From contig CBDFLJ010000002.1 in the NCBI GenBank assembly GCA_965248835.1, positions 672,001 to 736,000 on the forward strand: a DNA stretch of 64,000 nt, read 5' to 3'. The notes under the pieces are model-generated. The model worked only from the letters and a program-made list of their open reading frames with translations. It had not been told where the DNA came from and did no database searches. A program made the translations under genes and the position numbers. Positions 1,691 through 6,911 of the stretch are shown in pieces (within the stretch, counting starts at the first letter, position 1; the number at the start of each line of letters is the position of its first letter). Source of the stretch: Alphaproteobacteria bacterium. GTDB lineage: Bacteria > Pseudomonadota > Alphaproteobacteria > MPNO01.

Positions 1691-2497
1691 TTTATGTCGT
1701 GCCCCAAAAGGCCCAAGTCGCGATCTCCATGCCCGGTAATCGCAACGTCCGGTGATCGTTGCGCCGTCGTAACGCATACCGCTTCAGGACGCACCCCAGT
1801 ATTTTCCGCGAATCGCAAGTAGGTGGCGGCCGCATGCTGGTCAGGCGCCTGGCAAGCACCGGACCCTGAACACCGGGGACGCGTGTTCCTTCGAACCCGA
1901 CGATCTTCAATTCCAAACGCCTGAAAAGACGAAGCCCGGAAACAGACGCCCGACGGCATCGGGCACCCGCTCGCGCCAGGCCGGCACATTCAAAATCAGC
2001 GACAGGATGAATAGATCGGGTCAGGTCTTCCATGGACTCCAATTCGCCTGATTCCTCCTATGCGACCGACATCTGGTCCGCGGGTCCGCGGAACCGCCGG
2101 GGGCTGGGCTCGGCGCTGTAAACAGAAGCCGGTGCGGCGCACGCAAAGACCACGTTAATCCGACATTCCCCAGATGACTCCCAAACTCGGTCCCGATGGT
2201 AGCAGAAGAGGTCCCATCCTAGAACCATGAACGGCATTTCTGCCCGGCGCATTGAGTTTTCGACCGCCGGATCGGCTTTGACAGCCCAATCCCGCCCGAT
2301 TTCCTCCGCTCCGGACACACGTCTCCGTCCGTCATCTCGGTTTTTCCTCCGTTCAGGCCGTTGCCGGGGATGGTCGCCACAGTCCGTCGATCAATCCCAG
2401 GATGCTTCGGAACAGATCGCGGGACACGGCCACTTCGGCCATCTGGAACGTAACGTAGCGGCCATGGCTGACGACCTTGGCCCCGATCTTGACCACC

Positions 2498-2520
2498 CTT
2501 GATCGGCTTTGCCGCTCAAG
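2498..2520. repeat. 23-nt imperfect hairpin CTTGATCGGCTTTGCCGCTCAAG inserted in the IS1380 transposase
   Basis: Interrupts the expected SLTT(L/I)REKLVKIG motif. Matches the reverse complement of 2763-2785 at 20/23 positions. Confidence 0.75.
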
Positions 2521-2762
2521 CCCGGATTGTGGTCAGCGAACGGTGCTCCACCTCCTTCGGCAACGCCAGGGTCCGCATGAAGTTGGCGAGGTTGTATGCC
2601 AGGGCGTGAAGTTGCAGCCGGACCTCGTTGTTGCGGAACTTGCGACACGACAACCGGGTCCACTTGATGGCGTTCTTGCCCTCCTTGATCCACTGTTCCG
2701 CCGTGCCCCGATGATTATAGAAGGCGACGACCCGTTCGGCCTTGCGGCTCAGGTTGGTAACG

Positions 2763-2785
2763 CTTGAGCCGCGAAGCGGATCAAG
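2763..2785. repeat. 23-nt imperfect hairpin CTTGAGCCGCGAAGCGGATCAAG inserted in the IS1380 transposase
   Basis: Turns the expected YPRVGFIVTNL into YPRVGLDPLRGSSVTNL. Confidence 0.75.
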
Positions 2786-4077
2786 CCCGACGCGGGGATA
2801 CAATTCTCCGGGATCCATTCGACCTTGGCGACCACCCGGCGTTTTCTGCCCCACGATCCGGCTTGGTAGCTGAAGCTGGCATACTGACGGCGAACATGGT
2901 TGAGCGGGCGTCCGACCGGGCGACGGAGCAGATGGGCGATGCTCTCCTGGAGAACCTTGTTGGCGGGCAGGCGGATCGCGTAGAGCACGCTCTCGACTTC
3001 GAGGTATTCGTAGATGTCCGGCGAGGCGAAGGCCGCATCGCCTCGGAAATAGAGCCGAACCTGCCGTTCCTTGTAGCGTTCCACGACCGGGGCCAGGACA
3101 TCCCACCATCCGTTGGCACTGTGGACATTGCCGGGACGCAGGCGGCATCGTTCCAAGTCGCCCATGTGATTGAACAGAACAGGGGATGGTAGCAGGTGCA
3201 GCCGAAGTGACGGTTATAGGCTGTCCCTTCCTGGTCGCCGTAGATCGGGCTGACGCTGGAACCCATGTCGAGGATCACCTTCTTCGGTGGGTGGCGGTCA
3301 TGAACTCGGTCGATCCAAGCCCCGGACAGGTCGGCAAGAGCAGCGATGTTATCATCCGTCGCCAGAAATTCCGTCTCGAAGCGTCCCATCTGGCTCGCGG
3401 ACGCCGCCTGCTTGGCGACGGCATTCCCGCCGACGATCCATCGCATGGCCGGATCACGCCCAAGGCGGTCAGCATCGTTCACGTCTTCGTAACCGCCGAG
3501 GCGACCGAAGGTCGATTGGTGGAACAGCCCGGTCATCCCATGCTGACCGTTCTTGCCGGTTCGCGGGTCCGCTAAACGTCCCCCGGCGACTTCGGTCAAG
3601 CCAAGTGCATCATCGAGTTCCCGGAAGGGAAGGAGGCCCGCATCCGATGTGACCTTCGAGCCATTGAACTCCAGCTTCAGCCGACGGTCAATATCGAGCC
3701 GCAGCACCTCCCGTTTCGCTTTCACCCATCGGATGGGCCATTCCTTCTTCCCCATTCCGATAACAACCCATTGATTCTTAGATCAGAATCTCGCCACAGC
3801 GTTATCAAGGCGTTGCTTAATCTGGGGAATAGGGGCTATTTCCTCAACCGGCGCTTCACGTTCCGCGCCAAAGGGGGCCGAAGAGCTTCGTCGCCTACGT
3901 CATGCTGTACGTCGTCACTCTCGGGCTCAACGTCGCGGCCAACGCCGGCGTCCTCCACCTGCTCCCGTTCGACGGTGAAATCGCGCTCGCCATCGCCTAT
4001 GTGTTCGCCACTGGTCTGGCCGCGGCGACCAATTTCCTCGGTTTGAAATACGTCGTGTTCCGCTCGCCGCGCGTCGG

Positions 4078-4842: not shown

Positions 4843-6911
4843 AGCCGCCTCTCCTGCAAGGCGCGTACGGCCTGGGTGAGGACAAACAGCTGCATGACAC
4901 CGGACACGCCGGCGCGCCACTTCGGGCGCAAGTCGAGCAGCTCGTCGAGCTGCGGCACGAGGGCGGCGGCCGAAACGGCGATGTCCTCGGCGTCGGCCTC
5001 GCCCTCGACCCAGATTTCCACACCGCCCGTGTCCTTGTGCATAAGGACCTCGACATGCATGCCGCAGACGGCGATCAACGACCGTACCAGCTGCTCGTAG
5101 TGCGCGCCCGTGGGCATCAGGATGCGCAGCTTGAGCGCGGGATCGCGGCCGCCGCCCGCGTCCCGCAAGAGATCGGGGTGGAGCGGATGCAGCGAAAGGA
5201 CCAGGTCCGCCGCCTTCGCCTGGGGCGAGACGAAATGGGCGCCGTCGGGCTCGCGCTTCTCGAGCGACGCGATAACCGTCTCCTGTGACGCGCCACGTTC
5301 CTCGATGTCCCTCCGCGCCTTCAGGTAGCGCCGCAGGGCGGGATGCATGTCAAGAAAGACGCGCAAATCGTAGTGCCGGTTCAACTCGGGGGAATAGAGC
5401 GCGTGAAGACCGCTGGCAACGACAACGTCGTTGCGGTGGATGAGGCGCGGCTTGCTGCTGTGGCCGGTCGCGTGGTCGTAATGGCGGTTGCGCACCGACC
5501 TGCCGGCCATCAGTTGGACGACATCCTGATTGAACTGGTAGAGGTCGTTTGCCTGGGGGTTGAGATGGGTGAGCACCTTCCACATCGGCTGACGCCGGTC
5601 CCAGTTGTGGTAGTCGTCGCCGGAGATGCGGGCGACAGAGTGGGCGCCGAAAAGTCCTTCGATCGAGTCGGCGAGGGTATCCTTGCCCGTGCCGCTGTCG
5701 CCGGCGATTCCGATGGCCAAAGGCCGCCGGCTCAGGATGTAGTAGTCGTTGTGCAAGATGCCTTCGCGGGCCATCTGATAGCCGAGCATCGCGCCGGTCG
5801 CGACCATGAGAGAAAGGATCAGCGACGGCACCCGCTCCGACGCCGCCGGCAGCGACCCGATCACCGGCGACCGCAGATCGACCCCGAGCAAGGGGATCGC
5901 CGCACCGCTCGCTTCGAGCAGGTTCAAGGCGACGTAGAGGACGGTGAATATCGCCATTAGCACCTTTCCAGTCAGGCCGCTCTTGGTCTGGTAGTTGACC
6001 AGGAACGGCATCACCCACAGGAACCAGCCGGGCGACGCGGGGGTCAGCAGCAAGAGCACGAAGAAGCCGATACCCAGTAGCGCGAGAAGCAGATCGAAGC
6101 TGATCCGCCCGATCCGCCACGCCACGAACAAAACCACCAGATACACCAGCGGTATCAGATAGATGTTCAGCCCGCCCCCGAGCGTGATCGCCATCGCGTA
6201 GAGCTTGTCCATCTGCGGCGTCTGCAACACCATCGATCGGAAACCGTCCGACAGCAGATACGGCCCCATGACCAGCGCGGCGACCGCGGCGCCGGCCGCC
6301 GCATAGCGCGGCGCCAACCCGCGCAGCCGGTTGCTGTTGGCGAGGTAGACCAGGACGAACGGCGCGGCAGCCGCCATGCTCAGCTTGGCCGCCATCGCGA
6401 GGCCGATCATCGCGCCCGACGCCGCGACCCGCAGTCGCGACATCAGCACCAGCGAGAAGACCATCAGCAGGACTGGGACAATATCGAGCTGGCCGTGCCA
6501 GTAGCAGATGTAGATGACGATCGGCGACAGCCAATAGAGCGCGAGGACCTGTCCGGGCTTCTCGGGCACCAGCCGGTTGAGCGCGGCGTACAGCAGATAA
6601 TCATACAGCAGAACCGCGAAGCCGAGCCCCACCGCGCCGCCGGACTTCCCCAGGATCGAGTCGGCGAGCGCGCCGAGCAACACCGCCGGCGCGAGCATGA
6701 CGACGTAGACCGGGCCGTAGGGGAATGCGAACGGATTGCCGCCCCGCCCCAGATGCGCCGTCCAGAAATCCAGGCCGCCGCCCGCGGCCACGGATGCGAG
6801 AAACGGCACGAACCACTCCCCGTAGGTCTGCGGCACGACCAGCACGACCAGCGCCACCCGAAGCGCCAAGCCGGCGGTAAACAGGGATCCGCGCAACCCG
6901 TCGACCGCCAT
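4839..6911 (-). CDS. Fusion of a multi-TM GT-C (GT87/mannosyltransferase-like) domain and a C-terminal phosphoribulokinase/uridine-kinase-like domain
   Basis: About 390-aa hydrophobic N-terminus with FPYGP and HGQLDIVP. C-terminus has Walker A GDSGTGKDT, DDYHNWDR, HLNPQAN, YDH and GLHALY. Confidence 0.75.
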   Translation of the reverse strand: MAVDGLRGSLFTAGLALRVALVVLVVPQTYGEWFVPFLASVAAGGGLDFWTAHLGRGGNPFAFPYGPVYVVMLAPAVLLGALADSILGKSGGAVGLGFAVLLYDYLLYAALNRLVPEKPGQVLALYWLSPIVIYICYWHGQLDIVPVLLMVFSLVLMSRLRVAASGAMIGLAMAAKLSMAAAAPFVLVYLANSNRLRGLAPRYAAAGAAVAALVMGPYLLSDGFRSMVLQTPQMDKLYAMAITLGGGLNIYLIPLVYLVVLFVAWRIGRISFDLLLALLGIGFFVLLLLTPASPGWFLWVMPFLVNYQTKSGLTGKVLMAIFTVLYVALNLLEASGAAIPLLGVDLRSPVIGSLPAASERVPSLILSLMVATGAMLGYQMAREGILHNDYYILSRRPLAIGIAGDSGTGKDTLADSIEGLFGAHSVARISGDDYHNWDRRQPMWKVLTHLNPQANDLYQFNQDVVQLMAGRSVRNRHYDHATGHSSKPRLIHRNDVVVASGLHALYSPELNRHYDLRVFLDMHPALRRYLKARRDIEERGASQETVIASLEKREPDGAHFVSPQAKAADLVLSLHPLHPDLLRDAGGGRDPALKLRILMPTGAHYEQLVRSLIAVCGMHVEVLMHKDTGGVEIWVEGEADAEDIAVSAAALVPQLDELLDLRPKWRAGVSGVMQLFVLTQAVRALQERRL

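Follow-up and report, generated by a model that had tools for sequence, protein, structure and literature searches.

A family of nearly palindromic 23-nt mini-insertions, a candidate mobile element, in an IS1380 transposase gene and in REP-like repeats

Two hairpins in a defective IS1380 element

The window, i.e., the whole stretch of 64,000 nt that was analyzed (assembly GCA_965248835.1, contig CBDFLJ010000002.1, positions 672,001 to 736,000), belongs to an alphaproteobacterial genome of 4.89 Mb (G000), which consists of two contigs (C1 and C2; 2.29 and 2.61 Mb). At positions 2160–3834 on the minus strand, it contains a defective insertion sequence (IS) of the IS1380 family, which was characterized by blastn, comparison of copies, and Pfam, and which hosts two 23-nt hairpins. 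Hairpin type 1 (2498–2520, plus strand) reads CTTGATCGGCTTTGCCGCTCAAG, and hairpin type 2 is located on the minus strand (2763–2785), where the reverse complement reads CTTGATCCGCTTCGCGGCTCAAG. The best explanation is that the two hairpins are probably copies of a mobile family of nearly palindromic 23-nt mini-insertions. It is favored because the comparison of genomes revealed the same unit in unrelated contexts and also revealed the respective empty sites.

The two types differ from each other in three bases (positions 8, 13, and 16). The first and the last of these pair with one another, as G-C versus C-G, position 13 belongs to the loop, and a T6·C18 mismatch is common to both types. These features had been noticed in the initial annotation, and all of them were borne out. 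Both hairpins fold into the structure (((((.((((...)))).))))), that is, a stem of 5 bp and 4 bp that is interrupted by the T·C mismatch and closed by a loop of 3 nt. The DNA folding energies were -6.5 kcal/mol for the named strand and -8.1 kcal/mol for the other strand, with z values of -3.2 to -5.9 versus shuffled sequences.

The ends of the host element were set by comparing the window copy (copy A) with a twin in contig C1 (copy B, C1:26983-28660), which has a blastn identity of 98.3% to it over 1679 nt; the other paralogues in the genome have identities of 65–81% (blastn). Terminal inverted repeats are present at the right end in gene orientation (2160–2177, plus strand, CCGACATTCCCCAGATGA) and at the left end (3816–3834, minus strand, CCCTATTCCCCAGATTAAG). 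No convincing target duplication of the IS itself was found at the window copy or at the twin. The N-terminal open piece of the transposase (3186–3755, minus strand, 190 aa) matched the Pfam domain DDE_Tnp_1_4 (PF13701; E 1.4e-43, 149 bits). Members of the IS1380 family have a DDE transposase of this type with the motif Y-x2-R-x3-E-x6-K, and this YREK motif is readable in the translation of the window transposase (YNHRGTAEQWIKEGK). The C-terminal tail (VKIGAKVVSHGRYVTFQMAEV..., 2353–2496, minus strand) lies downstream of hairpin 1 and is now in a different frame. Two frameshifting 1-nt deletions on the minus strand are common to copies A and B. At 2814–2815, the coding strand reads TGG-ATCC versus TGGCATCC in the paralogues, and at 3176–3177, within the HPLF|VFNQ motif (site 1 below), it reads GTTC-TG versus GTTCGTG. 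The place of the latter deletion is the exact spot at which a type 2 hairpin is found in copy D (C2:2382541) and at locus L078 (L numbers denote loci and P numbers proteins). The contigs of runs X1–X3 contained a variant with a G inserted after 2814. Judged from its sequence, the window copy is broken by hairpin 1 plus the two 1-nt deletions.

A derivative of the same IS of about 305 bp, with an internal deletion, is present outside the window (C2:230054-230357). About 270 bp at its right end and about 45 bp at its left end have been retained, together with both inverted repeats. The derivative has identities of 92% and 87.5% to window positions 2160–2425 and 3788–3835, respectively, and does not contain the hairpin region. 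In appearance, it looks like a miniature inverted-repeat transposable element (MITE).

Comparison with hairpin-free paralogues

For an analysis of the insertion sites, copies A and B were aligned with four further paralogues (C, D, F, and G). At site 2 (PRVGF|VVTNL), a type 2 unit in copies A, B, and D replaces TTCGTN, the F-V codons of the hairpin-free copies. The net gain is 18 nt, the unit is in frame, and it is read as LDPLRGSS. At site 3 (TLRE|KLIKIG), a type 1 unit in copies A and B replaces AGAAG on the coding strand, i.e., (C)TTCT on the plus strand, from the E-K codons. In this case, the net gain is 19 nt, and a TGA is brought into the reading frame. At site 1, the unit of copy D is of type 2 but deviates by one mismatch (CTAAAG), through which a TAA arises. 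Target duplications were absent from all three sites in the paralogue alignment, and each of the two window hairpins replaces 4–6 nt relative to the hairpin-free paralogues, in agreement with the earlier view that they are insertions that replaced a few nucleotides and did not duplicate the target.

Type 1 with an identical junction was also found at C1:28300, C2:854000, and C2:1023051 and in genome G323. The type 2 insertion at site 2 was also found at C1:28035, C2:2382958, and C2:1023317 (1 mismatch) and at L110, L175-L178, L180, and L182. Copy D and L078 have two different junctions at site 1, which point to independent hits. In a tree of the C-terminal 480 nt, calculated after removal of the hairpins, copy D is placed among copies that have no hairpin (support 95/93), and copies D and E have 25 identical nucleotides beside the hairpin. 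Judged from the place of copy D in the tree and the 25 nt that it has in common with E, gene conversion between IS1380 paralogues probably also spreads the unit.

At L116 and L182, an IS1380 copy lacks about 230 codons, and the 23-mer is found at the deletion junction. The upstream flank ends in CGCGTCGGC, like a normal site-2 flank, which suggests a microhomology deletion beside the hairpin.

Contigs assembled from reads (Logan, three runs of one sample) bridged both hairpins without gaps. The assembly probably derives from this sample, so that an assembly slip is ruled out, but the support is not independent. Loose contig ends revealed empty site-3 alleles in the same sample and in a run of another study.

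Next, full-length proteins were inspected. The insertion LDPLRGSS, or a near variant of it, is present in 12 of the 120 best long homologues of a C-terminal piece of IS1380, and 8 of these 12 are 451–457 aa long, including P0070, which represents a cluster of 112 member sequences. The exact peptide occurs in the full-length open reading frames (ORFs) P0062, P0064, P0070, P0072, P0073, and P0077, and one residue is changed in P0099 (LDPLRGSI). The insertion is located about 17 residues ahead of the YREK motif. Decayed versions (LDPFHGSS, LDRFHRSS) indicate that the DNA hairpin erodes once it has become part of a gene. Of 80 metagenome relatives, one (L215) carries the canonical DNA unit in frame within an open frame of 468 codons. 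On this evidence, hairpin 2 is not an inactivating scar but an in-frame addition, which is present in full-length IS1380 ORFs of 455–457 aa and is predicted to be tolerated there. The initial annotation had regarded both hairpins as inactivating scars, and it had named their presence in intact members of the IS as an observation that would speak against its proposal. The scar reading stood for hairpin 1, with its TGA and its net gain of 19 nt; for hairpin 2, it had to be given up, while the origin by insertion was unaffected. A translational bypass of hairpin 1 was also considered and was rejected, as no matching take-off and landing codons were found when the sequence was read.

The presence of hairpin 2 in frame in full-length ORFs is also what would be expected if the hairpins were a native, selected part of IS1380 that acts as a peptide or as an mRNA structure. 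However, F-I or F-L is found at site 2 in 89 of the 94 homologues with a readable site-2 motif, 79 of the 80 metagenome relatives have no hairpin, and identical DNA is also found, in either orientation, in unrelated genes and in repeats that are non-coding. An assembly artefact is contradicted by the presence of the 23-mer in independent assemblies and in read-derived contigs. Both possibilities are refuted for practical purposes.

Occurrence in other genomes

A cross-genome scan with one genome per species yielded at least 121 matches in at least 118 stretches, and all figures for the scan refer to the matches listed. The scan pattern fixed 18 of the 23 positions, and variation outside positions 8 and 16 and the loop was thus under-sampled. 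Sixty-six matches were exact type 2 and three were exact type 1 sequences, and the family consensus was identical to CTTGATCCGCTTCGCGGCTCAAG. Positions 8 and 16 were paired in 109 of the 121 matches, versus 85.1 expected from the marginals, with C-G in 92, G-C in 10, and T-A in 4 cases. The loops included TTC (75), TTT (11), TCT (7), and TTG (4). Two copies that were retrieved by a search without the pattern also had altered pairs: at L108:1842, in a REP-like context (repetitive extragenic palindrome, see below), pair 9/15 is switched from G-C to C-G, and at L065:6352, a T-A pair is found at 8/16. When positions 6 and 18 were left free, the T·C mismatch was kept in 39 of 41 copies from four further carrier genomes from elsewhere (G001 7/8, G002 13/14, G003 16/16, and G004 3/3). 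Symmetric changes in the stem together with a fixed asymmetry would be expected if a folded single strand were recognized, but not if a dimer bound to a duplex palindrome.

The structure of the unit, two 10-nt inverted arms around a variable 3-nt center, could also be that of an excision footprint left behind by a larger transposon with 10-bp terminal inverted repeats and the ends CTTGATCCGC...GCGGCTCAAG. But no longer element with these ends and no convincing pair of ends was found. Inverted half-site pairs at distances of 40–8000 nt numbered 11 in G000, two of which were looked at singly, and 9 in the loci, most of which include a full hairpin, and half-sites are common in G000 anyway (37–56 of each outside full hairpins). 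In addition, the target bases were deleted and not duplicated, and the compensatory change keeps the arms complementary. A footprint is therefore a very unlikely origin of the 23-mer.

The titles of 80 of the at least 118 stretches were mostly those of metagenome-assembled genomes (MAGs) of Acetobacteraceae, Rhodospirillales, or Alphaproteobacteria. Outliers belonged to Acidobacteriaceae, Solirubrobacterales, Bryobacterales, and, in one case, Streptomyces. About 16 of the matches listed, with more than 2 mismatches to either type and from unrelated taxa, look like chance matches. A scan of viral contigs gave one match with an unpaired position 8/16 and an odd loop, which was also judged to be due to chance.

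In the whole genome of the window, nine copies were found with up to 4 substitutions, all of them in five IS1380-like loci. The search pattern CTTGANCNGCNNNGCNGNTCAAG was absent from all 19 other genomes of the same family. Because of these two results, the hairpins of this genome appear to have been inherited with the IS1380 lineage and not to have been acquired locally, and there is no sign of movement here. The earlier expectation of a REP-like family that is spread through the genome was thus not met in the genome of the window and its kin, while elsewhere the 23-mer was indeed found in REP-like repeats and in ISs.

In addition, 400 other genomes of the class, which were evenly chosen, were searched for the hairpin pattern, and it was detected in seven of them with 1–3 copies each. 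One of these cases was a perfect GATC palindrome and probably a chance match. Eleven of the sites were fetched, of which six were IS1380 site 2, one was a type 1 unit at IS1380 site 3, and four were located in the REP-like repeat. Five IS1380 copies with ORFs from this sample were examined (L185-L189) and were found to be broken. L186 (G234:C55) contains an in-frame hairpin and is otherwise interrupted by two in-frame stops only, its open pieces (1294–1677, 1681–2121, and 2125–2697) being all in one frame. A control with the reversed pattern gave no match in all 20 genomes of the family set and in all 401 genomes searched, and therefore, the hairpin matches are not due to chance.

REP-like repeats and transposase genes as hosts

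Most often, the 23-mer resides in Acetobacteraceae-type genomes in a GC hairpin that is REP-like and terminator-like (CCCTCACCCAAC-CCTCT-CCCCCAAGGGGAGAGGG), namely, in its 5′ arm. With a strict regular expression, this context was found for 49 of the 118 listed matches with full flanks (about 64 by eye), and all 49 units have the same orientation. The sequence of the empty site is …AACCCTCTCCCCC…. In G001, the repeat is empty 19 times (ACCCCTCACCCAAC-CCTCT-CCCCCAAGGGGAGAGGGCTTT, at unique loci) and filled eight times. In the filled copies, the 23-mer replaces CTCT or CCTCT in the 5′ stem arm, with a constant 3′ junction and a 5′ junction that varies by 1–2 bases. A search of Rfam at the gathering threshold with five loci that contain the REP-like repeat and the 23-mer gave no match. 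The terminator-like repeat itself (ACCCCTCACCCAACCCTCTCCCCCAAGGGGAGAGGGCTTT) is dispersed at L119-L145 in G001 and at many scan loci, and genome-specific variants exist in other Acetobacteraceae-type MAGs; in the G003 variant, the 23-mer is preceded upstream by an additional small hairpin (GGCGCTTCGCGCC).

In about 29 of the at least 118 stretches, the unit was found inside transposase genes, as judged by eye from translated flanks and ORF clusters. The hosts were verified for nine representative loci with Pfam at curated cut-offs. Matches over the cut-off were obtained for IS256 (L035 and L080, Transposase_mut), IS630 (L102, DDE_3), IS3 (L062, HTH_21 and rve; L033, HTH_Tnp_1), an IS5-type element (L009, DDE_Tnp_1), and an IS21 helper gene (L006, IstB_IS21). 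Two further matches were weak, namely, IS66 (L068, DDE_Tnp_IS66 with 22.5 bits versus a cut-off of 23.1; DUF6444 on the same protein was over the cut-off) and another IS5-type element (L021, DDE_Tnp_1 with 21.5 bits versus a cut-off of 23). At least seven IS protein families are represented among the genes that harbor the 23-mer. The coding frame runs through the unit in L035, L062, L068, and IS1380 site 2. Pairs of filled and empty sites were found in IS256 and IS630 homologues. Sites outside of ISs, classified by eye, were the carA-carB spacer in three Acidobacteriaceae genomes (type 1) and a gene end in Streptomyces.

L065 is a single IS630 copy with two units of opposite orientation (6352–6374 and 6607–6629), 255 nt apart. 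The diverged unit is located at the site of the FIDE motif, which includes the catalytic D, and the canonical unit at the LNP site. The arrangement resembles that of the pair in the window (265 nt apart, opposite orientation), which may be a coincidence. Near-identical hairpin-free copies of this IS630 element were not found in its own genome, and thus, no recent-insertion pair is available there.

Target and junction rules

All cases were oriented by the T·C mismatch and were compared with homologous empty sequences or, where these were lacking, with the codons that would be expected from conserved motifs. In the 11 resolved contexts, the lost bases were CTTCT at IS1380 site 3 and in the IS256 copy L080, CCTCT in the REP-like repeat, TATCT in the IS256 copy L035, GCTCT in the IS256 copy L061, GGTCT (inferred) at the IS630 FIDE site next to L065:6352, TACTT in the IS256 copy L034, TTCGT at IS1380 site 2, CTGTT at IS1380 site 1, CTGAA at the IS630 LNP site (homologues have TTCAA, CTCAA, and ATGAA), and CTCGA (inferred) in the IS3 copy L062. 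The lost 5-mer thus ends in TCT in 6 of 11 contexts, with some of the native sequences deduced from homologues or codons. Directly after the unit, the first base that was kept is C in each of the 11 contexts, and the base that was kept directly before the unit is C in most cases. In two larger sets of matches, C was counted at position -1 in 34/49 and 39/53 and at position +1 in 47/49 and 42/53; the 3′ flank of the unit reads C, CC, or CCC. The recurrent form of the target is C|NNTCT|C.

At every resolved site, 3–6 target nucleotides were lost, usually about 5. Most gene contexts had a net change of +18, i.e., six codons, and others had one of +19 or +20. Two models in which the loop stems from the target or in which the unit is a fold-back copy of its flanks were rejected after comparison of the loops and flanks with the lost bases.

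Search for a mobilizing enzyme

ORFs of at least 130 codons around 118 loci were clustered, and only the transposase hosts and no other recurrent neighbor were found. Two groups of enzymes that act on single-stranded hairpins were considered in addition. The initial annotation had proposed a link to transposases of the Y1 HUH type, as in IS200/IS605 or the REP-associated tyrosine transposases (RAYTs). An imperfect hairpin with a conserved mismatch and the absence of a target duplication are what would be expected of their substrates, and the initial annotation had also pointed to a possible resemblance to TTGAT and TCAA, the boundary motifs of ISDra2. However, Y1_Tnp (PF01797) had no match in G000, G001, G003, and G004, and the two matches in G002, the only one of the five carrier genomes with this domain, are not flanked by the 23-mer. 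Furthermore, 3–6 target nucleotides are lost, a GTAG or CGTC tag is not present, and the copies are few and often located inside genes. The proposed link was not upheld, and we consider Y1 enzymes very improbable as the mobilizing activity.

Better candidates might be the rolling-circle transposases of the IS91 family (HUH-Y2), which would be a specific version of the mobile-element explanation. According to a study on this family, the elements make no target duplication, insert beside 5′-CTTG or 5′-GTTC, with CTCG, CTTC, CTGT, and CTGA as minor sites, and have imperfect subterminal palindromes (PMC13181058). The 23-mer is bounded by CTTG...CAAG. At 3 of 11 targets, such a tetranucleotide is found at the junction, with GTTC at IS1380 sites 1 and 2 and GAAC at the IS630 LNP site. 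The domain Y2_Tnp was detected in the genome of the window (4 matches) and in G002, G003, and G004, so that 4 of 10 carrier genomes tested have it, compared with 13 among 150 other genomes from the class sample.

The genome of the window contains three IS91-family elements that are 98.5–99.1% alike (C2:633560-636100, C2:654031-657567, and C2:2373623-2376302) and have Y2_Tnp and a frame of 395 codons. Each adjoins an IS630-like end at a GATT|CAAG junction, so that one end of every copy borders on CAAG. In one of the copies, about 27 nt of the IS630 end are found on either side, which would be expected if neighboring DNA had been taken along.

Several results speak against an IS91-family enzyme. 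Y2_Tnp was found in none of the 5 other carriers and not in G001 with its 8 hairpin copies, and the hairpin is absent from all 13 Y2-positive genomes of the class sample. Sequences similar to the 23-mer (up to 6 substitutions) were not found within about 1.5 kb of Y1 or Y2 genes in 12 fetched loci. Moreover, IS91 keeps its target tetranucleotide, whereas in the present case, CTTG is a constant component of the unit and bases of the target disappear, and 6 of the 11 targets are of the NNTCT type, without CTTG or GTTC. The Y2 carriers are large and IS-rich genomes and may be related to each other, which makes the co-occurrence weak. An IS91-family transposase is therefore a lead only, and a quite unlikely one.

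A mobile unit or passive spread

A covarying hairpin family in unrelated contexts, with corresponding empty sites, is what would be predicted for an ultra-short element that is mobilized in trans, and such a family was found in many genomes. We therefore hold that the 23-mer is probably a mini mobile element, and the following course of events is proposed. The unit would be, or would have been, mobilized in trans in the form of a single-strand hairpin, and the enzyme would not be encoded in the 23-mer itself. This enzyme would recognize the folded strand, as suggested by the retained mismatch and by the compensatory changes in the stem, and about 5 nt would be swapped for 23 nt without target duplication. 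The copies in the window would have come down with the IS1380 lineage, and gene conversion may have transferred them from one paralogue to another.

A more far-reaching reading would be that of a nano-transposon that consists of nothing but a 23-nt folded site. It would be pasted into C|NNTCT|C-like sites, with a gain of exactly six codons, by a single-strand nuclease-ligase of the host or of an IS, possibly by an IS91-like HUH enzyme with a nick at CTTG^A. The terminator-like repeat would be its home, and ISs of at least seven families would be collateral or preferred targets, for which it would act as a natural mutagen or tamer and by which it would be carried between phyla. In this full form, the reading seems rather unlikely.

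A number of observations weigh against the interpretation as a mobile element. The pattern is rare in the class sample, and the copy numbers are low, with 8 in G001, 14 in G002, 16 in G003, and 3 in G004 and thus at most 16 per genome. The fixed positions of the scan pattern restrict what is seen of the variation, and to this the negative results of the neighbor clustering, of the Y1_Tnp and Y2_Tnp searches, and of the inspection of the Y1 and Y2 loci have to be added. Gene conversion between paralogues possibly also spreads the unit, and it would explain part of its distribution in IS1380. Similarly, the filled REP-like copies could in part have been multiplied as whole repeats. The filled and empty sites that were compared stem from paralogues, homologues, and repeats and not from orthologous single-copy loci of near-identical strains, and a recent mobility is thus putative.

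In an alternative explanation, no dedicated mobility exists. The 23-mer could have arisen once, for example, in the REP-like repeat, and could have been distributed by rare illegitimate microhomology events, followed by gene conversion and horizontal transfer of ISs. In favor of this view, almost every host is a sequence with multiple copies (an IS or a REP-like repeat), the IS1380 paralogues bear signs of conversion, the flanking C or CCC could represent microhomology with the REP-like donor context, the 5′ junctions differ among the filled copies in G001, and the enzyme searches were negative. On the other hand, the size of the replacement is regular, with about 5 nt and a net gain of 18 nt at IS1380 sites 1 and 2, in the IS256 copies L035, L061, and L080, in IS3, and in IS66. 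The orientation relative to NNTCT|C recurs and is uniform in the 49 REP-like contexts, and the kept T·C mismatch together with the compensatory changes fits poorly to passive recombination. Passive spread as the sole explanation is thus unlikely.

Other repeats and genome composition

A repeat of about 120 bp is located just beyond the end of the IS1380 element (window positions 1900–2020), and copies with 79–84% identity were found at C2:1768359, C1:264991, C1:1715422, C1:1717737, and C1:952212. The reported completeness of the genome is 100% and the reported contamination 9.51%; many IS families are common to both contigs.

Significance and comparison with known systems

Should the 23-mer indeed be mobile, it would rank with the smallest known mobile DNAs, and it would be the first such element to be reported from outside the cyanobacteria. 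It has a clean signature, i.e., a constant unit, about 5 nt replaced, six additional codons, a kept mismatch, and a recurrent target, which makes the movement of tiny repeats testable. Its presence inside IS1380, IS630, IS256, and others would be a case of mobile elements that parasitize mobile elements, and the patchy spread across phyla could be explained because the unit rides inside ISs. In addition, the 23-mer can serve as a marker for the tracing of IS lineages, and it provides natural six-codon insertions near the active site of transposases, which are predicted to be tolerated. For annotation, it accounts for recurrent peptides of the LDPLRGSS type and for frame breaks in transposase genes.

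Small palindromic selfish DNAs that are found in genes and can stay in frame include the Rickettsia palindromic elements (RPEs), the GC clusters of (fungal) mitochondria, double-hairpin elements, and byp elements; these have lengths of about 27–150 nt and belong to other lineages. To our knowledge, RPEs have no preference for transposase genes. MITEs are longer than about 50 bp, have terminal inverted repeats that match those of an IS, and generate a target duplication, whereas the unit described here has 23 nt and no duplication.

REPs and REPINs form GTAG and CGTC super-families and are linked to RAYT (Y1 HUH) transposases (PMC3733652, PMC3116915). Like these, the 23-mer is a short imperfect palindrome, it forms inverted pairs (L029 and L053), and it has a dispersed extragenic hairpin repeat as its home. 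Unlike the super-families as they are outlined by Di Nocera et al. 2013, it starts with CTTG, has no tag, reaches at most 16 copies per genome, is often intragenic, replaces bases that are lost, and has no associated Y1 gene. Y1 substrates insert without gain or loss of target bases, whereas 3–6 nt are lost upon insertion of the 23-mer. With the IS91 family, as characterized in PMC13181058, it has in common the absence of a target duplication, the CTTG/GTTC sequences, and imperfect terminal palindromes that are acted on as single strands. In contrast to that family, the 23-mer is geneless, its CTTG is internal and constant, its targets are often of the TCT type, and the co-occurrence with Y2_Tnp is inconsistent.

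A text search of the literature for the 21-nt core (both strands) matched no paper, and keyword searches for the element returned general repeat literature only. From these searches, the 23-mer family appears to be undescribed, and it is of a known but barely studied kind. The small dispersed repeats (SDRs) SDR4-6 of Nostoc and other cyanobacteria are said to be palindromic, mobile, and non-coding, with lengths of 21–27 nt, and they are reportedly nested in other repeats and in IS elements without target duplication. By this description, they are the closest precedent, as the 23-mer is likewise a tiny hairpin, is recognizable as an insertion versus empty sites, and has ISs and repeats as hosts. 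The SDRs differ in that they belong to another phylum and presumably have an unrelated sequence, while the 23-mer is distinguished by the swap of about 5 nt for 23 nt, by the C|NNTCT|C-like target, and by its presence in intact transposase ORFs.

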